From a bacterium (GTDB lineage: Bacteria; SAR324; NAC60-12): a DNA stretch of 64,000 bases. Where the stretch lies: positions 416,001 to 480,000 of the forward strand of contig CBDDTI010000746.1 in NCBI GenBank assembly GCA_965233585.1, written 5' to 3'. Position 1 is the stretch's first letter. The number at the start of each line of letters is the position of its first letter. A program made the translations under genes and the position numbers. Under the pieces are notes generated by a model that was not told the origin of the DNA, did no database searches, and worked only from the letters and a program-made list of their open reading frames with translations. This document shows positions 44,523 through 64,000 of this stretch, one piece after another.

Positions 44523-45896
44523 TCAAAAACGAATCTGTAGTTTTTTGATGTGTTGAATGAATCTTTGGTTAATGGTGGATTCTTGGGCATGTTGGTTGTC
44601 TTTGATAACCCAACGTCCTTTGACAAGCGTCCCGTAAAAATGGGGGTGCGTGTAAAGCATGGTCGCAGTTAAGTTTTGGGTGCTAGTGCAAGCCAGCAGT
44701 GGAGTCTTGGCATCAATGATGAGCGCATTCAAAGGGAATCCTTCTTTGAAAAAACGAGGTTCTGCATGCCCCATCGCCTTTCTGCCTGTAATGGTGCATC
44801 GCTGCAATGCCATCAATGCTGCGTCTCCTTGAAAAGTATCCCGTTGGTGAGAAACAAGACGTTGTCCGTAATCTAGCCATCGCAATTCCTCCAATGGATT
44901 CAATCCGATGTGGCTATCTGTGCCAATGCTGAAAGACCCACCAGAGTTGATGAAAGTTTGCACATCAAACAACCCATCGCCTAAATTCCCCTCCGTGCTA
45001 GGACACAACACAACATTTGCTTGACTTTTCACAATCATTTGCAACTCATCTTGGCTTAAATGTGTGGCATGGACAAGGTGGTAATTTTCATTGACAGGCA
45101 GATGCTGACAAAGCCACTGGACAGGTCGTTGTCCCAGATGAGCAAGACAATCGTCCACTTCTTGCAACTGTTCGCTGATGTGTATGTGTAACGGCACGTC
45201 ATCGGGTTTGTCTAGGGCAACCTGTTTCATCTCTTCTGTGCCAACTCCACGCATGGAGTGTAGCCCATAAGCAACGTTGGCATCTTCATACAAGCTGGCA
45301 CTTTTGATGCTGGCTTCTAACAGCTTGTAGTATTCATCAACATTTTTAGAGATAAAGCGAATTTGACGGGGATTAGGAGGCTGACCAAATCCCCCTTTTT
45401 GATAGAAAATTGGGATTAAAGTCAGCCCGATTCCTACTTCTTTTGCGGCACAAATCAAACGTTCTCCCATTTCAGCAAGATGACGATAAGCATTGCCAGA
45501 TGACTCGTGATGCAAATAATGAAATTCGGCAACATGCGTGTAGCCATGCTTCAACATCTCTTTATACAACATGGAGGCAATGGCTTCTAAATCCTCTGGT
45601 TCTAAGGTCAAAGCGATTTGATACATCGCCTCTCTCCAGCTCCAAAAACTGTCTTGCAAACCATTGGTTGCGTGGTTTTCTGCCAAGCCTGCCATCGCAT
45701 ATTGAAAAGCGTGAGAATGAGCATTTTGAAACCCGGGTAACGCATACCCATCAACAGACTCTACTAAGGCTTGGTCGTCATCTTGGATTGTTGATGCAAT
45801 AGAAACGATGTTGCCTGCATCATTGACTTTGACAAAGGCGTCTTGCAACCAACCTTCATTTTGTAAAATCCCTTTGAAATAATAGACTTTTTCCAT
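44523..45896 (-). CDS. hutF: Formimidoylglutamate deiminase
   Basis: PGFQNAHSHAFQYAMAG, SFWSWREAMY, AEFHYLH, HIHISEQ, CPSTEGNLGDG, GTDSH. Confidence 0.93.
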   Translation of the reverse strand: MEKVYYFKGILQNEGWLQDAFVKVNDAGNIVSIASTIQDDDQALVESVDGYALPGFQNAHSHAFQYAMAGLAENHATNGLQDSFWSWREAMYQIALTLEPEDLEAIASMLYKEMLKHGYTHVAEFHYLHHESSGNAYRHLAEMGERLICAAKEVGIGLTLIPIFYQKGGFGQPPNPRQIRFISKNVDEYYKLLEASIKSASLYEDANVAYGLHSMRGVGTEEMKQVALDKPDDVPLHIHISEQLQEVDDCLAHLGQRPVQWLCQHLPVNENYHLVHATHLSQDELQMIVKSQANVVLCPSTEGNLGDGLFDVQTFINSGGSFSIGTDSHIGLNPLEELRWLDYGQRLVSHQRDTFQGDAALMALQRCTITGRKAMGHAEPRFFKEGFPLNALIIDAKTPLLACTSTQNLTATMLYTHPHFYGTLVKGRWVIKDNQHAQESTINQRFIQHIKKLQIRF

Positions 45897-45930
45897 TTTT
45901 TAATTCTCTTAAATCTTTTTTCAAGTCTTT

Positions 45931-46737
45931 TTAAATCTTTTCTAACGTTTGAATGAGATTGACAAACATGTCTTTTAAAATGCCTCTGATGTGTTGTGCT
46001 TTGCTTTCATTGTAATGACGTTCGGTCTCGTCCATGTAATTTGTCTTTGCCATCTCCAGTTGGAGTGCATGAATCTTTTGTTTAGGATTGCCGAAGTTTC
46101 TGGTGATATAGCCCCCTTTGAATGGGTGATTGTGTGAAAACTCATATTGAGAGTCATTGAGGCTTTGCAAAGCCGTTTCTATGAGTTCTTGGCTGGCACT
46201 TTGTAAATCATTATCCCCCAAAATCAAATCAGGGAAAGGAGTGTTTTGAATGGTGGGGACAGATTTTTTGATAGAGTGTGCATCAAACAACAACACGTGT
46301 CCAAATGTTCTTTGGTGTTGTTCCAGCAATTCTTTGACCTTGTTGTGATAGGGCATGTAATAAGCGTCAAGTCGTCTTTGAATCTCTTTTTGTGTTGGAA
46401 TGTTGCTTGGCTGTCTGTAAATCTGATGCCCAAGAAAATCACAATGAGGCACTAAAGAAGTCGTGACTCTCCCATCATTATAAAGTGGTTGGTCGTGTAA
46501 AGAACGATTGAGGTCAATCACATATCTACTATACTTTGCACGAATCATGGTGATTCCCAAATCCCCTACAAAATCATAAAGCCTGTCAACAAACCAATCT
46601 GTGTCATCAGGATTTTGCAAGACTTGGGGCATGTAATCAGCAGCAATATCTTGCGGAAAGAGTTCGCCACAATGGGGGACGCTCACAACGATTGGCACAG
46701 AAGGCGTTGTCGGTTCAATCACATCATAAGGTAACAT
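45931..46737 (-). CDS. hutG: N-formylglutamate amidohydrolase
   Basis: SVPHCG, DTDWFVDRLY, SRYVIDLNR, DAHSI, FKGGYITR, HALQLE. Confidence 0.93.
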   Translation of the reverse strand: MLPYDVIEPTTPSVPIVVSVPHCGELFPQDIAADYMPQVLQNPDDTDWFVDRLYDFVGDLGITMIRAKYSRYVIDLNRSLHDQPLYNDGRVTTSLVPHCDFLGHQIYRQPSNIPTQKEIQRRLDAYYMPYHNKVKELLEQHQRTFGHVLLFDAHSIKKSVPTIQNTPFPDLILGDNDLQSASQELIETALQSLNDSQYEFSHNHPFKGGYITRNFGNPKQKIHALQLEMAKTNYMDETERHYNESKAQHIRGILKDMFVNLIQTLEKI

Positions 46738-46749
46738 ATCAATTTTTGA

Positions 46750-47457
46750 CTAAAGGACGGGTTCTGACACAGAGTAAAGTTTATATCTGGAAGAGGGGTA
46801 ATAAAGTTTGGAATAACTGGCAACTTTGTGATTGCAAAAGACCACTCTTGAGACAGCCAGACAAGGTTCAGATTCTCCTATTTCCAAAGCATGACAGGTT
46901 TCAGGCTGGCTTTTAACTGCTTCTATCGTATTTTCTACTTTTTGTGCAGGACAACGTTTTTGTAAGTATTCATTGGGGGTCATTTTTTTAAAATCTTGCT
47001 GCAGATAGTCAGGGCATAACGCTGGGTTGATATAGCGAACGTCAAAGCGGACTGGAACGTCATTTTCTTGATGTATGATTTGGGAAGTAAAGATTTTCTG
47101 GTCTGTGACAACTCCCATGACTGCAGCAACTTCTACACTGGCTTTGATTTCTTCTAATTTGTTAATTTTGTTGCTGTAACAATTCCCTCGTTGCTGAATC
47201 TCATCAACAATGTTTCTCAGCTCCAAAATGGAGGTCTGCGGCTTTTGAAAGCAAACAAAACTTCCACTCCTTGGAAACCTCCGAATCCAACCTTCTATGG
47301 CTAATTGACTCAATGCTTTATTGACAGTCTGCCTTGTTGTCTTGAATTGAATAGATAACTCACTCTCTGTGGGAATCTTGTCGTTGAACACAAATGTCTT
47401 GTCCAATATCTGTTGCTTAATAAAGTTCTTAATCTGCTTAAAAATCGCTTCACTCAT
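46750..47457 (-). CDS. hutC: Histidine utilization repressor (GntR HTH + UTRA)
   Basis: IPTESEL…TRQTVNKAL…SGSFV; LELRNIVDEIQQRG; HQENDVPV; adjacent to hutG/hutF. Confidence 0.9.
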   Translation of the reverse strand: MSEAIFKQIKNFIKQQILDKTFVFNDKIPTESELSIQFKTTRQTVNKALSQLAIEGWIRRFPRSGSFVCFQKPQTSILELRNIVDEIQQRGNCYSNKINKLEEIKASVEVAAVMGVVTDQKIFTSQIIHQENDVPVRFDVRYINPALCPDYLQQDFKKMTPNEYLQKRCPAQKVENTIEAVKSQPETCHALEIGESEPCLAVSRVVFCNHKVASYSKLYYPSSRYKLYSVSEPVL

Positions 47458-47522
47458 AAATTTTTTAAATCATAGACAGAATGCAAAGGTTTGTTGTTCG
47501 GTTTTAAAAGTCTTAAATAGAA

Positions 47523-48287
47523 TTAAATAGAATTGACAAATCCACCATCTATGTAGAGAATCTGCCCCGTGATGTAAGATGCTGAGTCAGAACATAAAAA
47601 GACACTTGCCCCCATGAGGTCTTCTAAATTCCCAAAACGTTGCATTGGAATCTTGCTAAGCATTTGGTCTTGCCATGCTTGGTTTTCGTAAAATCCTGCT
47701 GTCATGTCCGTATAAAAATAACCTGGGGCAATGCCATTGACCCGAATCCCAACGCTTGCCCACTCGCTAGACAAGGCTTTGGTCATGCCTGCTAATCCTG
47801 ATTTGGAGGAGGTATAAGGAACGGCAGTAGGTATGCCAACGGCACTGGTCAAGGAACAGACGTTTAAAATGCTTCTCTTGTTGTGTTGGCAAGGCAAATT
47901 GGCAAAGGCACGTGAACAAAAAAATGCCCCTTTTAAATTGGTGTCAAGAATCATATCCCAAAGGCTTTCATCAACGTCTTGACTGGCTTGAACTTGTTCT
48001 ATTCCTGCATTGTTGACCAAGATGTCTATTGCACCAAACTTTTGATGAATCTCTTCAAAAAACTGATCAATCGCTTGTTTGTTTTTGACGTCTAACTCAT
48101 AAGCAGATGCTTTGATGCCCAGTGCCTCAAGCTCTTGCTTCTTCTGTGATAGTTGTTCTAGCTTTCTTCCTGTGATGATGATGTTTGCCCCTGCTTGGGC
48201 AAATGCCGTAGCGATTGCCCCCCCAATGCCTTTTCTGCTACCTGTCATCACAGCGGTTTTTTCTGTTAAATCAATCGTAAAACTCAT
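47523..48287 (-). CDS. SDR oxidoreductase (KduD/gluconate-5-dehydrogenase-like)
   Basis: TGSRKGIG, NNAG, YTSSK, NGIAPGYF, YITGQ. Confidence 0.9.
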   Translation of the reverse strand: MSFTIDLTEKTAVMTGSRKGIGGAIATAFAQAGANIIITGRKLEQLSQKKQELEALGIKASAYELDVKNKQAIDQFFEEIHQKFGAIDILVNNAGIEQVQASQDVDESLWDMILDTNLKGAFFCSRAFANLPCQHNKRSILNVCSLTSAVGIPTAVPYTSSKSGLAGMTKALSSEWASVGIRVNGIAPGYFYTDMTAGFYENQAWQDQMLSKIPMQRFGNLEDLMGASVFLCSDSASYITGQILYIDGGFVNSI

Positions 48288-48290
48288 TTG

Positions 48291-49442
48291 TTATAGTTGG
48301 ATTAAATGTTGGTTCAAGTCTTCAAGCCTTTGGCATCGGATCTGTTCCAAGACTTGCTTCAGTTGAACTTTTAAAATGTTGATGGTGTGTGTTCCCCCTT
48401 TTTTCCCAAGGGTTGCAACGCCATACATCAAAGGACGTCCCACTAACACAGCTTTTGCTCCCACTGCCAGTGCTTTGGCAATGTCCACACCAGAGCGAAT
48501 GCCACTGTCAAAAAGAATCGTCATTTGATGTCCATAAGTCTGGCTAATCTCTCCAAGCACTTCCAAAGGGGACAATCCTGCATCAAACTGCCTTGCTCCA
48601 TGGTTGGAAACCACAATGCCATCTGCCCCAATTTCATAAGCACGTTGAGCATCTTGCAGACTCATCACTCCTTTTAAAATCAAAACACCCTTCCATTCAT
48701 CACGGAAACGTTTGAGCAATTCAAAGGTCACCTGTTGTTTGTCTAAAAGGGTTTGAGTGATTTGTAAGTGAGTTGGGTTTTTGGGCAAGTAAGGGGTAAA
48801 GTTTTCAAAGGTAGGCAAGCCATGTTTGAGTGTTTCCAGACACCAATAAGGTTTTTTGATGGCTTGGGCAAACATTTTTGGTCCGACTCTGGGGGGAATG
48901 CCTAAACCATTTTTGATGTCATCAGGGCGAAAAGTGACGCTTGGAATGTCAATGGTATAAACCAACACTTGGTAACCAGCCCTGTGAATCCGTTGCATCA
49001 AGTCTTTTTGAACATCAGGATTTTTGGGTTGGTAAAGTTGAAACCATGCCTTGCCTTCACTCAAACTCGCCGCTTTTTCTAAACTGATGGTCGTCACCGT
49101 GCTAGTAACCACAGGGACATTTGCTTGGACTGCCGCTTGAATGAGGATTTTGGGAGATTGAGGCCACATCATGTCCTGAAATCCGATGGGGGCAACACCC
49201 ATAGGTGCATCATAAACCCTGCCAAAAAGGTCAACTTTGGTCTCTACTGACTCACAAGTTTTAATATAGTGAGGTTCTAACTTGATTTTTTTAAACGCCT
49301 GTTGATTATGCGCTAAACCTTCATCTTCATTGGCGCCTCCTTCCAAATAATCCCAAGCAAATTGAGGCAGTCGCCGATGGGCAACCTTTCTTAAATCTCT
49401 GACGCTAGGGTAGCGGTAATCATACCAAAGTTGGTCATTCAT
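48291..49442 (-). CDS. FMN-dependent alpha-hydroxy-acid dehydrogenase/oxidase (LldD/mandelate dehydrogenase family)
   Basis: DYLEGGA, WFQLY, LKGV, VSNHGARQFD, DSGIRSGVD, GRP. Confidence 0.92.
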   Translation of the reverse strand: MNDQLWYDYRYPSVRDLRKVAHRRLPQFAWDYLEGGANEDEGLAHNQQAFKKIKLEPHYIKTCESVETKVDLFGRVYDAPMGVAPIGFQDMMWPQSPKILIQAAVQANVPVVTSTVTTISLEKAASLSEGKAWFQLYQPKNPDVQKDLMQRIHRAGYQVLVYTIDIPSVTFRPDDIKNGLGIPPRVGPKMFAQAIKKPYWCLETLKHGLPTFENFTPYLPKNPTHLQITQTLLDKQQVTFELLKRFRDEWKGVLILKGVMSLQDAQRAYEIGADGIVVSNHGARQFDAGLSPLEVLGEISQTYGHQMTILFDSGIRSGVDIAKALAVGAKAVLVGRPLMYGVATLGKKGGTHTINILKVQLKQVLEQIRCQRLEDLNQHLIQL

Positions 49443-50575
49443 CAATGTTGCTTGGCTTGGAATTGTTGCGCATATTGACTTGCTAAGTGGATATTGTCAA
49501 TGATGAGCTGGTTCGTCACGTCTGGCAAAGAAGCGTGAATGCCTGTGGAATCTTGATTGATTACAGAAGCAACCTCTTCCCATCTTTCTGATGAAAGGTG
49601 TGCAAGACCCAGCTCTTCCAAAGTGGTAGGCAACCCTAGCTGGGTCAGTAATTCCAACAATTCATCAATTTCTTCATCAGGATAGTTTTCTATCATCATC
49701 AAAACAATCACCCCAAAAGCCACGAGTTCCCCATGATAGAATTGATGAGCCTCTTCAAGTGTAGAAATTCCAATGTAAACTGCATGAGCAGCAGACACAC
49801 CGCAGTTTTCAAAACCCAAGCCACTAAGTAAAGTATTGGCTTCAATGACCTTCTCCAAAGATTCAGTACAAAGATGATGTTCTGCACTCATTTTTGCCTT
49901 GACTCCATGTTGTTTGATGGTGTCATAGCAACTTTGGGCAATCGCCATGGAGGCAAGAGTCGGCTGGTATCCTGTCTGATATGCAGTAGAAACAAAATTG
50001 AATCCTTGCGTTTGATGGTTAGAAAGTGCCTCAAAAGAAGTCGCAATGCAATCGCCCATGCCTGCCACTAAAAACCTAACAGGTGCTTGGGCAATCAATG
50101 CACTATCTACCAACACTAAAGACGGACTTTGACGGCATTGATGGATAGAGTCAAATTGTCCGCAAGCTGAATTGACCACTGCAATCGCACTGGTTGGTGC
50201 ATCGTTAGCAACGATCGTAGGAACAGAGACCATGATGGCTTGGGACTGGTCTGCAACTACTTTGGCACAATCAATGGCTTTTCCACCGCCTATGCCAACG
50301 ATGACACGACTCTTGAAATCATGTGCTTTCTGTCTCAAACGTTCTATCTCCTCCGGACAACACTCCCCACCAAAAACACATCGCTCTGCCTCCATTTTTT
50401 CAGAATGGAATAATTTCTGAATCATGCCTCCCATTTTTTGTTCTATCAACGCATCAATGATGATGAAGATAGGCATGTTCTCACCCAAAAAATCCTTAAG
50501 ATGCTTGGCTAAGGTTTGAATTGCATCTTGACCTTGTATGTATCTGCTAGGACTACCAAATCCTCTATAACTCAT
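49442..50575 (-). CDS. gldA: Glycerol dehydrogenase-like polyol dehydrogenase
   Basis: SPSRYIQG, FGGECC, GGGKAIDCAK, AGMGD, SGLGFEN, AAHA, YHGELVAFG. Confidence 0.85.
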   Translation of the reverse strand: MSYRGFGSPSRYIQGQDAIQTLAKHLKDFLGENMPIFIIIDALIEQKMGGMIQKLFHSEKMEAERCVFGGECCPEEIERLRQKAHDFKSRVIVGIGGGKAIDCAKVVADQSQAIMVSVPTIVANDAPTSAIAVVNSACGQFDSIHQCRQSPSLVLVDSALIAQAPVRFLVAGMGDCIATSFEALSNHQTQGFNFVSTAYQTGYQPTLASMAIAQSCYDTIKQHGVKAKMSAEHHLCTESLEKVIEANTLLSGLGFENCGVSAAHAVYIGISTLEEAHQFYHGELVAFGVIVLMMIENYPDEEIDELLELLTQLGLPTTLEELGLAHLSSERWEEVASVINQDSTGIHASLPDVTNQLIIDNIHLASQYAQQFQAKQH

Positions 50576-51893
50576 CATTAAATGCCTTTTTTCTGAGGTG
50601 AGAGACAGCGTTGGCATGTCCGTCAAATCCTTCATATTTGGCAAAATCATGCACATAAGAAGACACAGAGTCGTATCCTTTTTGAGTCACGTAACCAATG
50701 GAGATGGTTTTGAAGTAATCATACACCCCTAATGCTGATTTGGTACGTGCGGCAAAATGAGTTGGCAACACGGCATTAGGTCCCAAAGTAAAGTTTCCAA
50801 TACAACAAGGAAGATGCTCACCAAGCAAGATTTCCCCAGCATTTTGAATGGCATCTAAATAGTCATAGGGAGTTTTGCTGTGAATTTGCAAATGTTCAGG
50901 TGCGAAGTCATTGACAAAGTTGATGGCATCTTGCATCGTTTTTGTCAGAATGACTCCGCCACTTTGGGAAAGCACTGTCTGGGAATACCCCGCACGTTCT
51001 TCTCCCATCTTCTGCCAAAACTTTGGAATCGCACCTAAGGCTTCTTTGGCAACCCTTTCACAATCGGTCACCAAATAAGCAGAACTATCAGGACCATGTT
51101 CTGACTCTACTAACATATCCAACGCTGCCACTTGTCCATTGGCAGTGTCATCAGCCAAAACAATCGCTTCACTCGGACCTGCCTCAATTCCTGGGTCCAA
51201 AAACTCACTTAACAAGACTTTAGCAGCCAAGACAAAAGGGCTTCCCGGTCCAATGATTTTTTGGCATTTGGGAACGGTTTTTGTGCCATAAGCCACCGCT
51301 GCAACACCAACAGCCCCACCGCATTTATAAACTTTTTCTATGCCTGCTAATTTTGCAGCAACCAACGTAGCAGTGTCTATTTGCCCATCAGGTCCCGGGG
51401 GGGTGATGATGATTGGATTCTTCACACCTGCCACAACTGCTGGGACAGCAGTCATCATCACAACGCTAGGAAACGAACCTTTTCCACGGGGGACGTAACA
51501 TGCCACAGACTCTAGGGAGACAATTTTTTCTCCTGCAAAGACGCCTGGGTGCATCTCTTTAAGCCACATAGATTGGGGCATTTGTGCTTGGTGAAACCGC
51601 TTGACATTGTCAATGGAAAATTTCAAAACCTCCAGCATTCTTGGACTGATTTTTTGGAAAGCTTCGTCAAAGTCTGATTCACTTGCGGCGATGGTTTGTG
51701 TCGTGATTTCAGCGTGGTCTAAATCTTTTGCAAAGCGAACGATGGCATCATCACCTTCTGCTTGAACTGCCTGAATAATCGGTTTCACCTTGTCTTGAAA
51801 ACTTGCTAAATCAAGACTAGAACGTTGTAAAAGTTTGTGTCTATCTGATTCATTTAAATCGGATAATTGATAGTAGTTGATTGTATGAGTCAT
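50565..51893 (-). CDS. Histidinol dehydrogenase homolog with non-canonical active site
   Basis: YVPRGKG, IIGPGS, AGPSE, ESEH, FAPEHL, GNFTLGPNAVLPT, EGFDGHA. Confidence 0.88.
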   Translation of the reverse strand: MTHTINYYQLSDLNESDRHKLLQRSSLDLASFQDKVKPIIQAVQAEGDDAIVRFAKDLDHAEITTQTIAASESDFDEAFQKISPRMLEVLKFSIDNVKRFHQAQMPQSMWLKEMHPGVFAGEKIVSLESVACYVPRGKGSFPSVVMMTAVPAVVAGVKNPIIITPPGPDGQIDTATLVAAKLAGIEKVYKCGGAVGVAAVAYGTKTVPKCQKIIGPGSPFVLAAKVLLSEFLDPGIEAGPSEAIVLADDTANGQVAALDMLVESEHGPDSSAYLVTDCERVAKEALGAIPKFWQKMGEERAGYSQTVLSQSGGVILTKTMQDAINFVNDFAPEHLQIHSKTPYDYLDAIQNAGEILLGEHLPCCIGNFTLGPNAVLPTHFAARTKSALGVYDYFKTISIGYVTQKGYDSVSSYVHDFAKYEGFDGHANAVSHLRKKAFNDEL

Positions 51894-52019: not shown

Positions 52020-52077
52020 ACATAACGTTTAAGTTTATCCACCGAGGAACGACGTCGGCTGGGGCGATTTGTTATAC
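52020..52077 (-). mobile_element. attC-like integron recombination site (58 bp) downstream of the MTase
   Basis: Minus strand GTATAAC-AAATC-GCCCCAGCCGACG…-GTTATGT; MTase stop TAA lies inside the R'' box; L' box degenerate. Confidence 0.75.
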
Positions 52078-52983
52078 ACTATAGACTACTCCTTGTTCAA
52101 ACAATGCCAACTGAACTGGATTTTCTTGCTCTACACTTTTAGGTGTTGGAATATCGTAGTTAGTAATAAGAGCTTCAATCATTGGGTTTCTATTTTTTTC
52201 ACTTCCACCAATATGATAAAAATGTTCTCTTGTTAAAACATTAAACTGCCTCCATATTAAATCAATATGCTTATTTTCACGGAAATCATTGTGGTGCCAT
52301 GTTGATAGAATGAATTTACTTTTACTTTTGGATAAAGCATCAAAAAGCAATCTTTCCATGTCTACATTCCACCCATTGAAATAGTCTGTGTGTCTATCTA
52401 TGTAGGGTGGGTCGCAATAAATAATGTCAGAATTTTGTGCTTCTGCAATCGTTTTTTCAAATGATTGACATATCAATTCAATTTTTTTTGAGGACATTAT
52501 ATGGCTAATATGGTCAATCTGATTGGTAATTTTGGTAATGTAAGCTTGCGCAAATCGTTGTGGCTTTCTGCAAAAAGGCGTATTAAAATCACCTTTTCGG
52601 TTAAACCGAATCATTCCATTAAAACTTGCTCTATTCAAAAACAAAAAATCCAGTGGACAATGTTTATTATTAAATCTATCTCTCACTTTATAATAATGAG
52701 AATTACCTTCTTCAAGCAGTAAAGACCCCTCTTTAATAAGATATGATTTAACTCTGCTAGGAGTAATTTCACCATTTGCTATTGCTTGATAAAATTCTAT
52801 TAAGTGTGGGTTAGTGTCACTTAATAAAGCATCATTTGGAATAAGATTAAATCCAACAACGCCTGTTCCCATGAACGGTTCTATCCATCTTCCTCTGAAA
52901 TTTGAAGGAATAATTGAATTTATCCAGGGGACTAATTTGGTTTTTATCCCTTGGGATTTTATGGGAGGAACATGAACTTTCAT
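52072..52983 (-). CDS. DNA N6-adenine methyltransferase, M.EcoRV-like (Dam family)
   Basis: [47 protein letters not shown]; closely follows M.EcoRV as I recall it. Confidence 0.93.
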
Positions 52984-53816: not shown

Positions 53817-53831
53817 GGTAATGATTTCACC

Positions 53832-53889
53832 GCATAACGACAAAATCTAGCAAGCGGGCTAAAGCCCATCTGCTGGAGTCATGTTCTGG
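53832..53889 (-). mobile_element. attC-like integron recombination site (58 bp) upstream of the REase
   Basis: Minus strand CCAGAAC…AGCAGATGGGC-TTTA-GCCCGCTTGCT…GTTATGC; R' ends 16 nt before the REase ATG. Confidence 0.65.
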
Positions 53890-54744: not shown

Positions 54745-55613
54745 GTTCGTTCTCCAAGTAAGGTGCTATGAGTGCCAAAGATTCTGAATAAAATCACGAC
54801 TAAAAGACTCCCAATGGTGACTAATATCATGGAAATTGCTGACCCCAAACCTGCATTAGAAAGTTGGAAAAAGCTGTCATAGACACTGCTTGCTATAAAA
54901 TCATTCTGACCACCTCCTAAAATTTCTGGCATGGCAAAATCTGTTAAGGTGAGTGTAAACACGACAACACAAGCCCCGACGATTCCCGGTTTGGCAAGAG
55001 GAATGATGACTTGGAATAAGGTTTCACCCCAACTAGCCCCTAAACTTTCTGACGCCCATTCTAAGTCTTCACTGATGGCTGTCATTGCTGGAATCAGTAG
55101 CAACACCGCAAAAGGTAGCATGTATTGAATTAAACCAAAAATGACTGCAGGGTAGTTATAAATCAAAGTCAAAGATTCCACCCCAAGAACATTCAAGATT
55201 TGGTTCAAAATGCCTTCTTGACCAAGAATGATAAGCCACCCATAAGCCCTGACGACTTGACCAATAAAAAAAGGCAAAAAAAGTGTGATGAGTAAAAACT
55301 TTCTCATCATTGCAGAACGGCATCTGACCAAGACGTAAGCATAAGGGAATGCAAGAATGAGTGTAAAAAAGGTCACCAACACTGCACCCAAAAAGGTACG
55401 CCAAAGGACTTTTAGATTGGTTGGCTCAAAGAATTCTAAGTAATTGGACAAAGTGTAGGCTTCCTTCAGCCGATAAGTCGCAAGGTCTAGTTCATGTAAA
55501 CTTGCCTCCAAAATATAACCAAGCCCTATGACTAAAACGCCCACTAAAGCAATAGCAGGCAATAAAAAGCCAAAGGGAATCCAAAATTTTTGGTAAGGTG
55601 ATTTAGCAAACAT
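54741..55613 (-). CDS. ABC transporter permease (PotB-like)
   Basis: VVRAYGWLIILG, LEWASESLGAS, PEILGG. Confidence 0.9.
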   Translation of the reverse strand: MFAKSPYQKFWIPFGFLLPAIALVGVLVIGLGYILEASLHELDLATYRLKEAYTLSNYLEFFEPTNLKVLWRTFLGAVLVTFFTLILAFPYAYVLVRCRSAMMRKFLLITLFLPFFIGQVVRAYGWLIILGQEGILNQILNVLGVESLTLIYNYPAVIFGLIQYMLPFAVLLLIPAMTAISEDLEWASESLGASWGETLFQVIIPLAKPGIVGACVVVFTLTLTDFAMPEILGGGQNDFIASSVYDSFFQLSNAGLGSAISMILVTIGSLLVVILFRIFGTHSTLLGERT

Positions 55614-55644
55614 GAACTTTGACCTAACTCCCAATCAGTTGACT

Positions 55645-56766
55645 TTATCCTTTGAAGATTTTGTTAAATTCTCTAAACCAAATCGGCTGATTTTCAACAA
55701 GGACAGGGGAAGGCACGCTGACCAACTTTGCAAAATCTTCAGGCTTGGTTGGATAAGAGGGGTCTCCCACTAAGTCAGCAGGGGGTTCAATTCCCGGATA
55801 AACAGGAGGTAAGCCCAGCAAAGAACACCATTTTTGTTGAGCATTTTTGCTGATTGCAAAGTTGACTAACTCCTTTGCCCAATATTCTTCATTTTCAGGC
55901 AGTCCTTTTGGAATCCAAAGCCCATCAGTATCTACTTTGCAACCCTCCTGTGGAATTGTCCACTGGACGTCAATCCCTTTTTGTTTGGCGGCTCTAGCAT
56001 TGACTGAAATGGTGCAAGCCACGTCAATCTCACCTTTCTGAAACCACGTGGTAAAGTCAGGGTCTTCACCAAGCAAGGGTTCATTTTGCTTGAGCAAGCG
56101 ATAAAAGTTGTAGCCTGCCTCCATATTTTTAGGAATGTCTTCAAAAGTTCCACCGCCTGCAATCACAGCAATCGGGTTAAAGCCGATACCGTCATCGTAG
56201 AGAGCAGAACGTCTTTTGAATTTGGGATTTAATAAAACATTCCAAAATTTAGGAGGACCATAAGGAAAGGCTTCTGTTCGGTAAGCACAAACATAGACAT
56301 AGGCATAAGTATTGACCAATGGGTAGCCTGTTAAGCCCTTAGGCTTTGCCAATGGGAGTAAATTTTTAAGATTGGATAAACCGCTTAAATCCACAGTCGC
56401 ACCCCTTAATGCTGAAATAGTGGCATTCGTGGTGGTATCCCAGTTGACATGAATAGGGGGAACTCGTCCCTGGTCCACAGCCGCCCAAATCTTAGGCTTA
56501 ATTTCATTGTCTTCTGTAAAATCTAAGCGGACTTTAACTCCTGTTTGCTCAGTGAACGGGTCAGTCACTCCTGCCTTCAGAGCTTCTCCCCACGAGCCAC
56601 CCCATGCACGAATGATCAACTCCTTAGGTTTTCTAGGTGCTGCGCTTAAAATAGAGGGCATGACCATTGCCCCAGCGGCAGTCACGGCGACACCTTTGAC
56701 AAAATCCCTTCGGTCTATTTCATTAGTTGTAGCTTCTTTTTGATTTGACAAATTAGATGTTTTCAT
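55645..56766 (-). CDS. Tat-exported ABC substrate-binding protein (PotD/PotF-like family)
   Basis: DRRDFVKG twin-arginine signal; WGGSW, PFTEQTGVKV, IPQEG, WIPKG. Confidence 0.88.
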   Translation of the reverse strand: MKTSNLSNQKEATTNEIDRRDFVKGVAVTAAGAMVMPSILSAAPRKPKELIIRAWGGSWGEALKAGVTDPFTEQTGVKVRLDFTEDNEIKPKIWAAVDQGRVPPIHVNWDTTTNATISALRGATVDLSGLSNLKNLLPLAKPKGLTGYPLVNTYAYVYVCAYRTEAFPYGPPKFWNVLLNPKFKRRSALYDDGIGFNPIAVIAGGGTFEDIPKNMEAGYNFYRLLKQNEPLLGEDPDFTTWFQKGEIDVACTISVNARAAKQKGIDVQWTIPQEGCKVDTDGLWIPKGLPENEEYWAKELVNFAISKNAQQKWCSLLGLPPVYPGIEPPADLVGDPSYPTKPEDFAKLVSVPSPVLVENQPIWFREFNKIFKG

Positions 56767-56830
56767 AATCTTTTCTCTTGTTAGGATAAATAAAAATACA
56801 ATTAAAAATGGGTTAAAAAAATCAATATTG

Positions 56831-57928
56831 TTATGTCACAGCACCCTCCTTTGACAATAGTGGAAAGAGATGAATGTCTTTTGCATGACAACCTAACTGC
56901 ACACTCGCCCCAATTTCTAAAAGTGTATGCTGGTGATGTAGCAAAACCGACAAAGATTGACCGCAAGCAGAGATTTTATAGACGATTCTGTCCCCTTCAA
57001 AAATCATCTGTTCTACAAGACCTTGCCAGACATTGTCAAATGGCTGATTCTGTGTGGAATCCTCCCCTGTGACGATGTGCAAATTTTCTGCTTTGATGTT
57101 GCAAAACAAGGGGTCTCCTGCCTGAACGTTTTTAAGCAGATTTGTAGATTTCATTTCAGTCTGGAAAGCATTGAATCTGATACATGTTTGGTCAATAGAC
57201 TGAATGTGAGCTTGAAAGGTATTGCTTAACCCTATAAAATTTGCCACAAAAAGCGTTTGAGGTTTTTGATAGACCGCAGTAGGTTTGTCATGCTGTTCTA
57301 CTTGAGCCTCATTCATTACCACGATATGGTCTGACATGACCAGAGCTTCTTTTTGATTGTGTGTCACATTGATTGTCGTGATTCCTAATTCCTGTTGAAT
57401 GCGTCTAAATTCCAGTTGCATCTCTTCTTGGAGTTTTTTGTCTAGTGCTGACAAAGGTTCGTCTAACAACAACACATCTGGACTAAAGGACAAGGCTCTT
57501 GCAATGGCAATACGTTGTTGTTGACCCCCAGAGAGTTCATGGATTCTTCGGTCTCCTAAGCCTTCCAGACGGACTAACTTCAAATAATGTTGAACAATTT
57601 CAGGAATGTCCTGTTTGGGAAATTTCCGCATTTTCAAAGGATACGCAATATTTTGTGAAGCGTTCATGTGTGGAAACAAAGCCAATTTTTGAAACACCAT
57701 GCCGATAGAACGACGATGCGGAGGAAGGTTTTCACTAGACTGTCCATCAATCAGAATATGCCCCTCATCAGGAGAATCAAACCCTGCAATAATTTTGAGC
57801 AGTGTCGTTTTACCACAGCCACTAGGTCCAACAATCGTCAAGAACGTACCTTGGTCAACTACAATACTGACGTTTTTTAAGGCTTGCAACGTCCCAAAAG
57901 ATTTAGAGATGTTTTGAATTTCAATCAT
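56831..57928 (-). CDS. ABC transporter ATP-binding protein (PotA-like)
   Basis: GPSGCGKTT, LSGGQQQR, LLDEPLSALD, THNQKEA, TOBE-like tail. Confidence 0.93.
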   Translation of the reverse strand: MIEIQNISKSFGTLQALKNVSIVVDQGTFLTIVGPSGCGKTTLLKIIAGFDSPDEGHILIDGQSSENLPPHRRSIGMVFQKLALFPHMNASQNIAYPLKMRKFPKQDIPEIVQHYLKLVRLEGLGDRRIHELSGGQQQRIAIARALSFSPDVLLLDEPLSALDKKLQEEMQLEFRRIQQELGITTINVTHNQKEALVMSDHIVVMNEAQVEQHDKPTAVYQKPQTLFVANFIGLSNTFQAHIQSIDQTCIRFNAFQTEMKSTNLLKNVQAGDPLFCNIKAENLHIVTGEDSTQNQPFDNVWQGLVEQMIFEGDRIVYKISACGQSLSVLLHHQHTLLEIGASVQLGCHAKDIHLFPLLSKEGAVT

Positions 57929-57936
57929 TTTACATT

Positions 57937-59265
57937 TCAACCATGATGAGCGTTTTCAGATTTAATATATTCAAAAAACTTGACAAAGTCATCACTTCCT
58001 TTGAGGGGTTTTTGTGCCGCTTTTATAGCTTGGCAGAATCCGATGAGGGAGCTTGTTGGATTGTGTGATGAATCAGGAGTAACCAATAAATTCATCACTA
58101 AGATAGGACAGGTAAAAAGTGCCAAACGGACGGTTCTTTCAAATGTCTCAAACGGAATGTCTTCTTTCAAAGCCTTGTACAATGGCTTCCAAAAATTCAC
58201 TGCTTTAGAAGTCAAAAATCCTTCTCTAATGTCGCTTAGAATATAGTTTGTTTCCACACAAATTTTATCTTGTTCTACACAAGCCTTGACGTCATAGTGC
58301 TGACTAAAAAAGTCGGGTTCGTAAAGCCAAAAAGGGTGTGCAAAGATGTTATGAAAAGTCGCTTTCACTTCTGCTAATAAGGCAGGAATTTGGGCATTGG
58401 CAAAAGCTGGGTCAAATAGACTAAAGGTCTGGTCTTCATGCAGCCAGACGTTCGCATGGTGGGCATCGCCATGTGAGTTAAAAGCAAAACCGGGCAACAG
58501 TGCCTGAGGGGTCAAATCAACAAGGCAGGCTTCTAAACAACTTTTTAAAGTTTCAGGATAATCTATTTGGTTAATAGACCACTTCAAATCAATCAACTCC
58601 TCAAAAGGAAGACGAAGGACTTCTCCATTGAAACCTTGAAAGACAGCCGTTTGATTTTTGTAAAATGACTGAATCCGCCCTCCGATTTCTTCATAACAAG
58701 TAGGAGGTTTTGACAAATCATTGACTAAACGGTGATAAAAAAGTTGGAAAATAGGTTGATGGATTCCTTCAATCCCTTGAGTTTGATGTAATGTCTTCAA
58801 AGCAATTTTGGAAAAGTATTGGTCTATTTTTTCTTCAATCGCAATCAATTCATTTGCATTGAAAGAGCGATTTTCTTTTGAGGACTTACCTTTTTCATAG
58901 TCTGAACAAACATCAGCAAATCTGGAGTCTTGAATACGTTTGTAAATGACAATTTGTTGGTTTGGTGTCGTGTTTGAAAATAAAGGTTCTTGGACTGGAT
59001 AGCCTGCCTCTTTGAGAACCTTGGCTTGATAATACTCGCTGACTTGTTCCTTTTCATTTTCTTCTGTATGGAACTTAAAAAAATACTCGTTAGCATGGTG
59101 GTCGCTCATCAAACCATTGACAGAATTGAGGCTATACTGATCCTGATTGATACAGAGATTTTGCACTACAAGAGGTGTGGTGTCCTGAATCAAATGTTTC
59201 AAAGCTGAAGTTGCACCTGAAAGGTCTTGGTTTTTAATCAACTGATGAATGCTTTGCGTATCCAT
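57937..59265 (-). CDS. Hypothetical protein with APH/choline-kinase-like motifs
   Basis: YFFKFH, SHGDAHHANVW (HGDxxxxN), LFDPAFA. Confidence 0.6.
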   Translation of the reverse strand: MDTQSIHQLIKNQDLSGATSALKHLIQDTTPLVVQNLCINQDQYSLNSVNGLMSDHHANEYFFKFHTEENEKEQVSEYYQAKVLKEAGYPVQEPLFSNTTPNQQIVIYKRIQDSRFADVCSDYEKGKSSKENRSFNANELIAIEEKIDQYFSKIALKTLHQTQGIEGIHQPIFQLFYHRLVNDLSKPPTCYEEIGGRIQSFYKNQTAVFQGFNGEVLRLPFEELIDLKWSINQIDYPETLKSCLEACLVDLTPQALLPGFAFNSHGDAHHANVWLHEDQTFSLFDPAFANAQIPALLAEVKATFHNIFAHPFWLYEPDFFSQHYDVKACVEQDKICVETNYILSDIREGFLTSKAVNFWKPLYKALKEDIPFETFERTVRLALFTCPILVMNLLVTPDSSHNPTSSLIGFCQAIKAAQKPLKGSDDFVKFFEYIKSENAHHG

Positions 59266-59289: not shown

Positions 59290-60812
59290 CTAAAGAATCC
59301 CATAATCGTTTAATTTTCCAGACATCAGCAATTCATAGATGGCAGAAATATCATCAGCAAAGTAGCGGTCTTTCTGATATGAAGGTACTTTTGCACGAAT
59401 GATTGCTTTTTTTTCTTCCAACACCGCACTAGTTTTGAGGGGTGTTAGAAAATCTAATCCTTGGGTTGAGGCTAATGCTTCAATCGCTAAAATATGAGCC
59501 ACATTTTCATTGATGCTTTGCAGACGCCTTGCGGCATAAGTCGCCATACTGACATGGTCTTCTTGATTGGCTGAGGTCGGAATGCTGTCCACGGTGCTTG
59601 GATGCGCCAGTGATTTGTTCTCACTTGCCAATGCGGCGGCGCTGACTTGAGCAATCATAAACCCAGAGTTTAACCCAGAGTTTTGCACTAAGAAGGGAGG
59701 ATGTCCGCTTAAATGTTGGTCAATCAACATCGCAACTCTCCTTTCTGACATACTGCCAATTTCAGAAAGTGCAATCGCCATCAAATCAGCTACCATGCCA
59801 ACAGGTTCTGCATGAAAGTTGCCCCCAGAGATAATTTCTTGAGTCTCATCAAAAACAAGAGGATTGTCAGACACTCCGTTTGCTTCTCTCATCAAGATTT
59901 GACCCGCATGCCTTAAATTATCCAACACTGCACCCATGACTTGAGGTTGACACCTCAGACAGTAGGGGTCTTGTACCCGCTGGCATACTTCTCCTTGATG
60001 GCTTGACCAAATAGGGCTGTCTTTCAACAAATGACGCAAATAAGCAGCAACTTCTTTTTGCCCCTCTTGATTTCTGACATGGTTGATGTTCTCACTAAAA
60101 GGAGCATGCGAGCCTTTGATAGATTCCAAAGTCAACGCCCCTACGACCAATGCAGAACCAAAAAGTCGCTCTGCAGTCAAAAAAGCTGAGAGGGCTAGGG
60201 CATTAGAAACTTGAGTTCCGTTGATCATGCCCAGACCTTCTTTGGCACTGAGAGTCAAAGGAGAAAGCCCAACTTGTGCTAATACTTCTTGAGAGTCTCT
60301 TGTTTGACCTTGATAGCAAACTTTGCCAATTCCTATCAAGGCACAAGTCAAATGTGCAAGAGGGGCTAAGTCGCCAGATGCTCCAACAGACCCTTTTTCA
60401 GGAATGATTGGATAAATTTTTTGATTGTAAAACTCAATCAATAAATCTATCAACTCCTTTCTGACCCCAGAATAACCAGCAGCTAAGCTGCAGGCTTTGA
60501 GTACCAAAATCAATCCAACAACTCTGTCATCTAGCGGCTGACCCACACCTGCAGAATGAGAAAGAATTAAATTTTTTGTAAAATACTTAAATCTTGCTTG
60601 GCAATTTTGGTGTTAGCCAATAATCCAAAACCCGTATTGATTCCATACACTGCCTTGTCAGATTCTGCTTTTTGTTGCACCAGCTCATAAGCTGCTTGGA
60701 TTTTGCCGTCATTTTCATCAGACAGCTTCACTGGTGTTTGATGAAAGTAAATGGCTTTCAGTTGTTCTATGGTAACGTCTTGAGGTTTGAGGGTGAGTTT
60801 AGCTGTGTTCAT
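59290..60812 (-). pseudogene. hutH: Histidine ammonia-lyase, frameshifted at an A6 run (60572-60577)
   Basis: VYGINTGFG in the 5' fragment; GSVGASGDLAPLAH, QDPY, SGGNFH, ANQEDHVSM in the 3' fragment; one extra A restores LQKNLILSHSAGVG. Confidence 0.88.
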
Positions 60813-60906: not shown

Positions 60907-62487
60907 TTAAACCGATAGACATAAACCTTTGAGAAAATGACTAGTTTTTGAAATATCATCAGACATGAATCTATCACTATCAAAAAAGGGAACAATCTTT
61001 CTAAACATTTTCAGCAAAGATTTGGTTTTCTTACCAATCTTTAGATTAGCCGATTTCTGCTGACGAAGATCAATTGCCTGAGCTGCATGGAATAGTTCTA
61101 TGGCAAGAACAATGAAACTATTGTCAATTTGGTTCTGAACATTGGTCGCTACCATAACGGAATTAGTTCCTATGTCTTCAAGACCTCTTGCAAGTGGCAA
61201 ATAATCAAATGACGAAGGCATTGCCAAAGAACGAATTTCAGCAGAAACTGCCAACATTGGAATTTCCAGAGCAACCAACGAATGCTGAGTTTCATCATGG
61301 CTCAAATAACGTGGCAGTCCTGTGAAATAAGGGTCAACCAATTTAGTAACCCTTTGTGCTGAGGCACTCGCCATGTGAGCAATAAGGATGGATAATTCTT
61401 CAAGAGCTACGACCCAAAAGACTGGGCAAAAATTCCCCGTAGGTAGAACTGCACCACCATCTGTATAGAACTTCTTGGCAATTTGCAATTCAGAGGTTGG
61501 TTGTGACCCAACAATAACAGTTGGATTATCATCAGAAGAATTAATTTGTAGGCTAAGTAAACCCTCCAATCTATCCAAATTAGACCGCATAGCTGCCAAT
61601 AAATGAGGTCCATTGCGAAAACTCAGTGCATCTTGAAAGGGACGACTGGTGTCTTCGTCCCACAAATAGCTACCTTTCAATATGTCTAATAGCTCACGAG
61701 ACGTTTCCTTCAAGCCTGGGAATGCTCTTTGTCCAACCACATCAGGTAAAATTGGTGTTATATTGCCATTTACGGCTTCTAAGCTAGTGGCAAAAACTAA
61801 ATGACCAATGCTACAAAGTTGCTTTGCTTCAAACAATAGAAGGACTGCTTTGGCTGCCGCATATGAATTATTACTGAGAATAGCTAATCCGTCTTTAGCA
61901 AAGGGTTTGAGTGGTTCTTTTTTTGTGAGTTTAAGTGCCTCATAGGCAGTCATTTTGACTCCCTTGTAATACACTTTGCCATCGCCAATCATAGCAAGTC
62001 CCACATGACTCATCAAGACGACATCACCAACACCAACAGACCCCTTACTAGGAATAACAGGGCAAATATCATGATTAATAAAGTGGATAAACATATCCGC
62101 AACAGCAGGACTAACGCCGGGACCACCAGTTAAAATGGTATTCAGCCGAATTGCCATAGCTGCCCGCACTAGCTTCGTGTCGCTATCTGGTCCAACTGCC
62201 ACTGCATGAGAACGCAAAAGTCCAATATTGTATCTAACAGAGGCTTGAAATACTTCTGGGGATATTTCACCTTTGGCATTGACCATTTTACGATCTTTAT
62301 TAAGACCTACCCCAACAGTCAAACCATAAATGTCATGCCCAGCCATGGTGGCATTCAGTAAAACCTGATGCGCCTTTTCAACACATTCCAAGGCATCAGC
62401 TGATACCAACACTTGTTTCCCATTAGCGATTTTCACAATATCTTCAATACTTGCTATCGCTTTTGTCAGTTTGACACACTTATCCAT
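60907..62487 (-). CDS. Aromatic-amino-acid lyase family protein lacking the MIO tripeptide (ergothionase-like)
   Basis: IYGLTVGVGLNKD; GSVGVGD instead of GSVGASGD; QDALSFR, NSSDDNP, GLEDIGTN. Confidence 0.85.
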   Translation of the reverse strand: MDKCVKLTKAIASIEDIVKIANGKQVLVSADALECVEKAHQVLLNATMAGHDIYGLTVGVGLNKDRKMVNAKGEISPEVFQASVRYNIGLLRSHAVAVGPDSDTKLVRAAMAIRLNTILTGGPGVSPAVADMFIHFINHDICPVIPSKGSVGVGDVVLMSHVGLAMIGDGKVYYKGVKMTAYEALKLTKKEPLKPFAKDGLAILSNNSYAAAKAVLLLFEAKQLCSIGHLVFATSLEAVNGNITPILPDVVGQRAFPGLKETSRELLDILKGSYLWDEDTSRPFQDALSFRNGPHLLAAMRSNLDRLEGLLSLQINSSDDNPTVIVGSQPTSELQIAKKFYTDGGAVLPTGNFCPVFWVVALEELSILIAHMASASAQRVTKLVDPYFTGLPRYLSHDETQHSLVALEIPMLAVSAEIRSLAMPSSFDYLPLARGLEDIGTNSVMVATNVQNQIDNSFIVLAIELFHAAQAIDLRQQKSANLKIGKKTKSLLKMFRKIVPFFDSDRFMSDDISKTSHFLKGLCLSV

Positions 62488-62499
62488 AGTATTTATATG

Positions 62500-63519
62500 T
62501 TAGTTTGAGGTCACCATAGCCTCAACAGTGTCGTGTAGATTGATGTATCCCACAGATTCGCCAGAATCATTGACAACTTGGGCTTGGCTTTTTTTTGAAC
62601 GCACCATGGTACTCACTGCTTTTTCAATGAAGGTATCTTCCGTTACTGTGACCGCATCTGAAAGATTAATATTTTTTTTGAACATGATAGATTTCACAGT
62701 GACCACTTGACCTCGGTTCACATCCTTTACAAAATTACGAATATAGTCATCAGCTGGGTTAAGAATAATATTCTCTGCTGTCCCCTTTTGAATCACAGAG
62801 CCATCTCTGAGAATAGCGATATTATCACCTAATTTGATGGCTTCATCTAAGTCGTGGGTAATAAAGATGATTGTTTTTTTCAACTCCGCCTGAAGGTTTA
62901 GTAATGCCTTCTGCATATCAATACGAATCAACGGATCAAGTGCAGAAAATGCCTCGTCCATCAATAGAATCTCAGCATCATTAGTCAATGCACGAGCTAA
63001 TCCGACCCGTTGTTGCATACCTCCTGATAGTTGCTTGGGATAATGGTCTTCAAAACCTTCTAAGCCTACCCTTACAATCCATTTTTCAGCTTGTTTAAGG
63101 GCTTCTTTTTTAGGAAGACCTTGAATCGTCAAGCCGTACGCTGCATTTTCAATGACTTTGCGATGGGGAAGTAGTGCAAATTTTTGGAACACCATTGCTG
63201 TTTTGTAACGTCGGAAGTGACGTAATTCAGAAACTGACATGTTACAGATGTCAACGTCCTGATACAGAATTTGACCAACAGTGGGTTCCACCAAACGGTT
63301 AATATGACGAACGAGGGTAGATTTTCCAGAACCAGACAATCCCATGACCACCTGAATTTTTCCAGATTTGATGGTCAAATTAATATCTTTCAACCCTAAA
63401 ACGTGACCGTGTTTTTCGTTCAACTCTACTTTAGATAGTCCGTTTTTGACATCATCAATATAACGTGTGCCGTATGGTCCAAAAATTTTGTATAAATTTT
63501 CAATCCTAATATCATTCAT
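62500..63519 (-). CDS. Quaternary-amine ABC transporter ATP-binding protein (ProV/OpuAA-like) with CBS-like tail
   Basis: ENLYKIFG, MGLSGSGKST, LSGGMQQRVGLARAL, MDEAFSALDPLIR. Confidence 0.93.
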   Translation of the reverse strand: MNDIRIENLYKIFGPYGTRYIDDVKNGLSKVELNEKHGHVLGLKDINLTIKSGKIQVVMGLSGSGKSTLVRHINRLVEPTVGQILYQDVDICNMSVSELRHFRRYKTAMVFQKFALLPHRKVIENAAYGLTIQGLPKKEALKQAEKWIVRVGLEGFEDHYPKQLSGGMQQRVGLARALTNDAEILLMDEAFSALDPLIRIDMQKALLNLQAELKKTIIFITHDLDEAIKLGDNIAILRDGSVIQKGTAENIILNPADDYIRNFVKDVNRGQVVTVKSIMFKKNINLSDAVTVTEDTFIEKAVSTMVRSKKSQAQVVNDSGESVGYINLHDTVEAMVTSN

Positions 63520-64000
63520 CTTTGATTCCTAGGTGCTTTTGCAATCTTTTCCCGTATGCTTGAGTTGAGCGATCCAACAAGATGGCAATGGCAACAATAG
63601 CCAAACCATTCACTAAACCCATGGTAAAGTATTGGTTGCTAATAGCTTGTAATACAGGTTGCCCAAGTCCTTTGACACCAATCATAGAAGCGATAACAAC
63701 CATTGCCAAAGACATCATAATACATTGATTGATGCCTGCCATAATTGTTGGAAGAGCGAGTGGCAACTGCACATCTCTGAGTTTCTGCCAATCAGACGAA
63801 CCGAAGGCATCAGCAGCTTCAATCATATCTTTATCCACCAAACGAATACCAAGGTTAGTCAAACGTATCATTGGGGGCAAGGCATAAACGACAACTGCGA
63901 TCATTCCTGGAATTTTGCCCAGACCAAAAATCATGACTACTGGGATTAAATAGACAAATGGAGGCATGGTCTGCATCATATCAAGCAATGGATTTACAAA
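63512..64000 (-). CDS. Quaternary-amine ABC transporter permease (ProW-like), 3' part; runs off the right edge
   Basis: LDMMQTMPPFVYLIP, RLTNLGIR, EAADAFG, IMAGINQ. Confidence 0.92.
   Translation of the reverse strand, partial: FVNPLLDMMQTMPPFVYLIPVVMIFGLGKIPGMIAVVVYALPPMIRLTNLGIRLVDKDMIEAADAFGSSDWQKLRDVQLPLALPTIMAGINQCIMMSLAMVVIASMIGVKGLGQPVLQAISNQYFTMGLVNGLAIVAIAILLDRSTQAYGKRLQKHLGIKDE

Follow-up and report, generated by a model that had tools for sequence, protein, structure and literature searches.

A kinase-fold protein predicted to substitute for HisB, shared by HisB-less histidine operons and a transporter-linked module in the hut region of a SAR324 bacterium

The window analysed here is a 64,000-nt stretch (positions 416,001 to 480,000 of contig CBDDTI010000746.1, here C746) from the SAR324 genome assembly GCA_965233585.1 (here G000; 12.0 Mb, 92% complete), and its last part, from 44523 to 64000, contains histidine utilization (hut) genes together with many others. 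One of them, an open reading frame (ORF) at 57937..59265 on the minus strand, encodes a protein, named X in this work, which very probably takes over the step of the histidine biosynthesis enzyme HisB, as judged from sequence and genome context. X is likely a novel catalyst of a step for which only one enzyme was supposed to exist, and it is common to a catabolic module and to histidine operons devoid of HisB. The combined reading, in which X would do the job of HisB on an imidazole-glycerol skeleton and the module would supply the Hut enzymes with histidine made from an imidazole polyol taken up by the cell, is the one towards which the evidence leans. To our knowledge, HisB is treated as the only enzyme for its step. 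No HisB alternative is mentioned in the sections of the GapMind papers of 2020 (PMC7311316) and 2026 (PMC13759103) covered by this check. The literature searched describes neither X nor the function of its module, most subscription journals and all supplements being outside that search.

X gave no match in Pfam, including the HisB family PF00475, and none in a search of solved structures by sequence. Most of its 850 homologues are named 'hypothetical' and the ESM Atlas returned only hypothetical or APH-like cluster names. The structure model of X (predicted local distance difference test, pLDDT, 93.9) has a bilobal protein-kinase-like (PKL) fold and its top structural matches (VIA) are all PKL kinases: PsiK (Z 17.3), methylthioribose kinase (17.1) and the lexapeptide dehydratase complex (16.7), which are ties, with about 300 aligned residues and a root-mean-square deviation of 4.6–5.8. 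Residues K64, E77, H265-G-D267-x-H269-x-x-N272 and D285 were invariant in 99 X sequences, and we take them to be the ATP lysine, the helix-C glutamate, the HxDxxxxN loop and the Mg-binding aspartate, respectively. R179, R197, K301, H305, H310, R347 and K354 were also invariant. On the basis of the model, X is a small-molecule kinase fold of the PKL type (APH/CAK group), with phosphotransfer as the predicted activity. It is like the kinase-fold dehydratase subunit LxmK, PsiK and methylthioribose kinase in fold and catalytic motifs but only 8–10% identical to them. In addition, LxmK acts on peptides together with a partner, whereas the neighbourhood of X has no conserved lyase partner. No fusions of X were found among proteins of 775–2210 residues, although this is weak evidence.

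The relation of X to the HisB step appears in histidine operons. X lies directly before hisH, with no hisB, in four Patescibacteria loci (L072, L076, L101 and L103) and in 8 of 24 metagenome loci. The gene order of L072 is hisG, hisC, hisD, a haloacid dehalogenase (HAD) phosphatase, a small ORF, X, hisH and hisA, and both L101 and L103 are complete from hisG to hisIE, X being placed before hisH and after a phosphatase of the HAD or inositol monophosphatase (IMPase) type. The his loci L191 and L134 contain X as well. In the Patescibacteria class of genome G041 (301 genomes), 57 genomes have HisD; HisB was present in 45 of these and X in none of the 45, and the four genomes with X, seed included, are all among the 12 that are HisD-positive and HisB-less (Fisher p 0.001; 0.006 minus the seed). 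G042 is a fifth genome with X and no HisB. Separately, in four genomes of the same class (loci L106, L109, L110 and L112) the roughly 8 kb around a canonical hisD gave no match to any other his gene, and HisB was not matched either.

In Alphaproteobacteria, X was detected in 16 of 401 genomes, once G069 (E 6e-4, internal stops) had been dropped from the count. Eight of these genomes carry X of a transporter/hut type, and all eight have HisB and HutU. Eight others have X next to a variant HisD (HisD2) without any module transporter; in these stand-alone genomes HisF was found in 8/8, PF00475 in 0/8 and a partial HutU in 1/8, and HisD2 was the only HisD found in 7/8. This class was set before the HisB test for seven of the eight genomes and afterwards for G592. 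Among 55 X-less alphaproteobacterial controls, HisF was found in 37 and HisB in exactly the same 37, giving a contrast with the stand-alone genomes (p 5e-9) that is overstated by kinship. On the tree, HisB-less X was spread over several distinct branches. Compared with HisB, X takes the same his-operon slot, has a complementary distribution and the same predicted net reaction, but it differs in the absence of a sequence match, in its PKL fold, in its predicted use of ATP and in a substrate that may be unphosphorylated or a carboxylate.

It is very improbable that X is an ordinary salvage kinase for imidazole glycerol, imidazole acetol or histidinol and that the HisB-less genomes scavenge or lost hisB through incomplete assembly. 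Its nearest folds, PsiK and methylthioribose kinase, are plain small-molecule kinases and the assemblies are incomplete. However, the HisB-less X genomes retain HisF, X occupies the hisB slot in several operons that extend in full from hisG to hisIE, and at baseline HisB was missed in 0/37 genomes. The sequence-only reading of this stretch had proposed a kinase step that helps to funnel imidazole compounds into the urocanate pathway; a HisB substitute explains the kinase-like ORF better than a simple activating kinase does.

The HisD proteins that accompany X are also altered. Residues are given in E. coli numbering, taken from the K-12 operon. HisD2 of the window (50565..51893, minus strand; TIGR00069 passed) has E259, C356, N360 and A367 (the first three being E263, C363 and N367 in its own numbering); it lacks the canonical zinc ligands Q259 and D360, as well as E356, and keeps H262, the catalytic E326 and H327, E414 and H419, with roles as given in PMC11382572 and PMC5585171. 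Module-type HisD proteins have E259, V/I/C356, N360 and A367, and the Patescibacteria-type HisD beside X has R259 and V356 in 4/4 genomes and 5/5 contigs. Both X-linked types keep E326, H327 and E414, and the equivalent of E414 binds the imidazole ring in Medicago HisD according to the portion of PMC5585171 covered here. HisD beside X was non-canonical in 61 of 62 full-length cases, the exception (L008) being a separate housekeeping copy. In the alphaproteobacterial sample, V/I356 together with A367 was found in 14/14 X-linked loci vs 1/13 other loci, that one a 1.9 kb contig; the HisD fragment of G256 was unscored.

Similar changes were seen in the aminotransferases. No canonical HisC was found in the Patescibacteria-type X operons with a visible aminotransferase. 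Three X-operon aminotransferases have lost Y20, Y243 and R335 and carry K322 in place of R322, and 9/9 controls keep all of these residues; R322 and R335 of HisC are phosphate holders, as stated in the part of PMC4703992 used here. Class I aminotransferases were identified in the X operons L131, L133 and L137 and partially in L129, those of L133 and L137 being confirmed by family scan, and none was found in the L127 operon. Module aminotransferases are either TyrB-type or HisC-like with R335 and K322 in 10/10. The module of the window has none, and a HisC-like gene lies on C729 of the same genome.

Because HisB-less genomes would make imidazole glycerol phosphate (IGP), X must presumably supply the net dehydration. 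Since the partner HisD and the aminotransferase are altered, we favour, tentatively, a reordered route via imidazole pyruvate in which the HisD variant would act before X. In the biosynthetic operons, a HAD or IMPase phosphatase would first free imidazole glycerol from IGP, the HisD variant would oxidise it to imidazole glycerate, X would convert this into imidazole pyruvate and a 2-oxo-acid aminotransferase would finally give histidine. X would phosphorylate the ring-adjacent C3 hydroxyl using ATP, and the phosphate would then be eliminated through a diazafulvene to give the 2-oxo compound, as chemical reasoning suggests. From stereochemistry, the C2 hydroxyl of D-erythro-imidazole glycerol would be placed like the amine of L-histidinol, and the example of HpsN shows both diols and amino alcohols being oxidised within the HisD family (PMC11382572 and PMC12814064). 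In the window, X and HisD2, assisted by the proteins for uptake and redox steps, would provide HutH with histidine derived from an imidazole triol or diol. The short-chain dehydrogenase/reductase (SDR), together with GldA or a zinc alcohol dehydrogenase (Zn-ADH), would interconvert stereoisomers or keto/diol forms, as HpsO/HpsP do for HpsN, and the flavin mononucleotide (FMN)-dependent oxidase would take imidazole lactate arising from a 3-deoxy diol. Imidazole lactate breakdown in Pseudomonas was the subject of older work. X and the HisD variant may form, although we advance this with reserve, a second end of histidine biosynthesis that bypasses HisB, HisC and histidinol in several Patescibacteria and Alphaproteobacteria and that, together with ABC (ATP-binding cassette) transporters, was redeployed in rhizobia, marine bacteria and enterobacteria to catabolise an imidazole polyol of the environment that has gone unrecognised.

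Alternatively, X could be a straight non-orthologous HisB producing imidazole-acetol phosphate from IGP in the standard order, the HisD variants oxidising histidinol. In the module, X would then act on imported imidazole glycerol, with reduction of the ketone by the SDR and formation of imidazole pyruvate through HisD2 and the FMN oxidase, so that only substrate and order depart from the explanation preferred here. We consider this rather unlikely, as no canonical HisC accompanies X in the Patescibacteria-type operons mentioned above and X almost never adjoins canonical HisD. However, the many invariant basic residues of X could hold a phosphate, and the canonical-looking HisC proteins, the HisD variants found alongside HisB and the X-less modules described in the next paragraph fit the standard order.

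Several data weigh against the reordered route, or against the HisB-like role of X as a whole. First of all, eight HisD-positive, HisB-negative Patescibacteria have no X, most of the genomes are incomplete assemblies, kin are not independent and the window genome has its own hisB, so X does not fill a gap there. No natural source came to light for the putative substrate. In addition, HisC retains both R322 and R335 in all five of the stand-alone genomes from Alphaproteobacteria in which it was examined. The E259/N360-type HisD is the sole HisD beside HisB in G378, G397, G420, G558 and G661; X-less genomes with HisD2-type HisD have HisB in four of five cases, and it is absent in the other; G142 pairs an R259/V356 HisD with canonical HisB and HisC, and G057 pairs an R259 variant with a canonical-type HisC. 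Both HisD variants therefore probably also oxidise histidinol, since they are found as the only HisD with HisB and, in G142, with canonical HisB and HisC. In the same way, HisD2 may also be the histidinol dehydrogenase of the window genome, because this genome, at 92% completeness, has hisB but yielded no canonical HisD. The loss of E356 may only compensate for the changed Q259, because the equivalents of both residues are partners in the Medicago structure, as given in the part of PMC5585171 covered here; the argument that this loss proves a diol substrate is weakened by that pairing. Finally, three relatives have the FMN oxidase, HisC2, SDR, ABC transporter and HisD2 without X and without HutU, and the hut cluster of G044 includes X and HisC2 but lacks HisD2.

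Divergent HisB-like proteins were also observed beside R259/V356 HisD (L116:7756-8400, L117:4681-5319 and L115 at about 7450-8700). They are 27–29% identical to that of E. coli, with altered metal motifs and a doubled form in G057, and G139 and G098 combine R259/V356 HisD and divergent HisB with no HisC in the operon. These proteins may represent another dehydratase that acts in the reordered route. The window genome, in turn, has a second HisD paralogue (C747:100247-102255), whose neighbours are a LacI-type gene and an SDR. This paralogue has V356 and K361, lacks the His126 motif and by motif is neither canonical HisD nor HpsN.

The search of the genome collection with X gave 73 loci, many of them from Mesorhizobium and not independent. 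Within 10 kb of X, HisD2 was present in 60, an SDR in 56, a Zn-ADH in 51, a HutC-like regulator in 40, a HisC-like aminotransferase in 30, the FMN oxidase in 17 and GldA in one. A binding protein was found near X in 58 of the 73 loci, being of two unrelated types (29 + 29) that never occur together. No recurrent extra genes were found near the module except lineage-specific neighbours. Annotated copies occur on pSymA of S. meliloti and in Paroceanicella, Pacificitalea, Rhizobium and Klebsiella plasmids; none of hutH, U, I, F or G is annotated near the copies on pSymA or the other plasmids. On a mobilizable Klebsiella plasmid (L004:3915-14949) the module lies between insertion sequences and includes a D-2-hydroxyacid reductase in addition to the FMN oxidase.

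The hisD2 cluster of pSymA, in the SMa0387-SMa0403 region, is the same module as that of the window (identities of 53% for HisD2, 62–65% for the substrate-binding protein (SBP) and 37–38% for X), but it has Zn-ADH and HisC2 and no hut genes within 13 kb. In the portion of PMC8844928 covered here, SMa0392 is treated only as a small RNA target. The window SBP is 75–81% identical to those of marine alphaproteobacterial modules, its twin-arginine (Tat) signal being RRDF (PF10518 E 6e-4, under cut-off); among solved structures, PotD is its closest relative (E 1e-9). A search of 40 relatives of the window genome did not find X, and the window X nests among marine alphaproteobacterial modules (99% SH-aLRT branch support) in a quick tree of 66 chosen rows of loci, which suggests transfer.

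Regarding its linkage with histidine degradation, hut genes lie within 10 kb of X in 12 of the 73 loci, hutF only in four of these, and G455, located from the HisD side, is hut-linked too. Adding the HutU found in all transporter/hut-type alphaproteobacterial genomes, the outcome that would have refuted the sequence-only reading, a module never linked to hut in other genomes, did not occur. Its description of an expanded hut region was broadly right. However, the region is a composite of separate parts, because the module mostly occurs without hut genes (61/73 loci), and three relatives carry it in genomes without HutU. Redox and kinase steps were proposed in that reading to funnel substrates into the urocanate pathway, but the module more likely feeds histidine than urocanate directly.

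These data leave the substrate of the module to be considered, which in the window is probably an imidazole polyol. The module could instead degrade a non-imidazole polyol or amino alcohol by a logic like that of 2,3-dihydroxypropanesulfonate (DHPS), its hut location being incidental; this is quite improbable. In its favour are the loci without hut genes and the relatives without HutU, an SBP whose ligand is not inferable from PotD, and the HisD homologues that act on sulfonate diols and cysteinolate, as described in the sections of PMC11382572 and PMC12814064 used here. On the contrary, HutC-like regulators occur in 40/73 loci, hut linkage recurs and the same X and HisD2 pair serves HisB-less his loci. 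Moreover, the marks of HpsN are absent from the window HisD2, which has G-K-G-S-F for the G-R-Y-A/S-H motif with His126 and Phe at the Lys353 position; the DHPS pathway was ruled out for the module by these missing marks. With the HpsNOP system for DHPS of Cupriavidus pinatubonensis, as described in the part of PMC11382572 covered here, the module shares a HisD-family four-electron oxidase, two secondary-alcohol oxidoreductases and a transporter; it differs in the zinc site (E259/N360) and in having X, the FMN oxidase, an aminotransferase and a HutC-like regulator.

X-less modules were found at L161 and L163-L165 (G013, G024 and G002), also without ADH or HutC, beside phosphonate catabolism-like genes and in genomes where HutU was not found. 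In L059:1891-12492, L050, L069 and L078, X belongs to another, second cluster of hut-like type that includes an M20 peptidase and a HutU of divergent sequence (51–53%), and L059 also has a UbiD-family decarboxylase. This composition suggests that such clusters break down another imidazole derivative.

The region 44523-64000 of the window contains 17 minus-strand ORFs spaced by -14 to 178 nt, and all the ORFs named in the sequence-only reading are present there, on that strand and in place, in agreement with the family scans. The locus has three parts: the standard hut set, ProXWV with a lyase lacking the 4-methylideneimidazole-5-one (MIO) cofactor, and the X/HisD2/ABC module. The module comprises the SDR, a predicted secondary-alcohol oxidoreductase (47523..48287; 51–55% identity to X-adjoining SDRs), the FMN-dependent 2-hydroxy-acid oxidase, predicted to convert imidazole lactate into imidazole pyruvate (48291..49445; PF01070), a GldA-like diol dehydrogenase in the position of the Zn-ADH of other modules (49442..50578; NF006941, 396 vs 336), HisD2, a PotABCD-like ABC transporter (53947..57940, with the Tat-signal SBP at 55645-56766) and X, all on the minus strand. 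Between the permease and hisD2, which adjoin in the closest related modules, a restriction-modification cassette has been inserted (52072..53843, minus strand) consisting of a Dam-type methylase (PF02086) and an EcoRV-family endonuclease (PF09233), with a GC content of 0.33 vs 0.41-0.44 in the flanks. It may uncouple transcription of the genes downstream.

A complete five-step Hut set (HutHUIFG) and a HutC-type regulator lie within about 24 kb. On the minus strand of the window are hutF (formiminoglutamate deiminase, 44523..45896; TIGR02022, 476 bits vs a cut-off of 413), hutG (N-formylglutamate amidohydrolase family, 45931..46737; PF05013 E 2e-62, under the TIGR02017 cut-off, 233 vs 279), the GntR/UTRA repressor gene (46750..47457; TIGR02018, 237 vs a cut-off of 220) and hutH (59290..60812; TIGR01225 passed). 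The sequence-only reading had expected hutU and hutI beyond the window, where we located them at window-equivalent 65732-67417 (minus strand) and 67443-68705 (plus strand); with proX (64450-65460 on the same scale), they are all within 5 kb past the window end. As in the known HutHUIFG/HutC pathway, all six genes are present at the locus, but here they are interleaved with the module, the lyase and the restriction-modification cassette. The repressor belongs to the HutC family by its TIGR02018 score; it is the sole copy that tblastn found in the genome and its closest locus homologues show 33–36% identity. The HutC box patterns tried gave no intergenic match in 43000-70500.

The hutH gene appears in two pieces, an 80-residue N-terminal part and a C-terminal part with the ASG motif, between which the reading frame shifts by one base at an A-run near 60571. 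Logan short-read contigs, from one study and perhaps from the source sample itself, cover the cluster as two overlapping single pieces (44000-55080 and 54218-63999), the hutH base being the only difference. Since two Logan contigs of one sample have the extra base, the frameshift is likely an assembly error and the gene intact, and a hutH pseudogene was discarded for the same reason.

The MIO-less lyase (60907..62487, minus strand) lies beside proV and the end of proW (62500..64000, minus strand; betaine/histidine-type ABC transporter, TIGR01186 passed). S. meliloti has a HutXWV transporter. The closest solved relative of the lyase is ergothionase 6s7j (E 5.6e-80). It has no ASG/MIO, retains Tyr54, His94, Gln285, Arg291 and Glu437, including the Tyr base and the His-binding residues, and carries Ile409 at the position of the thiolate-binding Lys384 of Td_ETL. 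In the parts of two preprints covered here (bioRxiv 2025.08.13.670108 and 2026.04.22.720169), enzymes with a neutral residue at this position cleave histidine betaine or its N-pi-methyl form, and SO_3299, which shares this feature, takes the N-pi-methyl betaine. On account of Ile409 and of the absence of any PF06032 match in the 92% complete genome, an ergothioneine pathway was rejected. The window lyase is likely a histidine-betaine (hercynine) lyase feeding the single HutU of the genome, a known kind of enzyme, as its residues indicate, and this fits the betaine uptake and use proposed from the sequence alone. It is like Swoo_3913, SO_3299 and Td_ETL in being MIO-less with the same five residues, and like the first two in its neutral Lys384 position, although with Ile instead of Asn or Gln. 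In contrast to Td_ETL it has Val for Glu in the former ASG loop, and further differences from this group are the lack of an evident signal peptide and a linkage to HutU instead of a urocanate reductase. Lys occupies the Lys384 position in a Burkholderia homologue that belongs to a DUF917 cluster. The annotated 'hutH' of S. meliloti pSymA (L125:7908-9548) also encodes a MIO-less lyase, in which the N-terminus resembles a signal peptide and Ala stands at the position of Lys384, and it is likely misannotated.

Two further genes were observed around the region. A Leu/Phe/Val dehydrogenase-family gene, with a possible link to 2-oxo-acid amination, lies just downstream of hutF (42425-43456), and about 6 kb past the window (C746:485812-488151) a 779-residue protein is encoded in which nearly identical kelch-like repeats form a long array, with an overlapping frame of 509 residues.

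If true, a kinase-fold HisB substitute would account for steps that seem to be missing from histidine synthesis in uncultured lineages, would alter auxotrophy calls for some Patescibacteria and would add a small-molecule case of dehydration through phosphorylation and elimination. The catabolic form, present in 8 of the 401 alphaproteobacterial genomes and on S. meliloti pSymA, points to a still unnamed imidazole nutrient in the environment.

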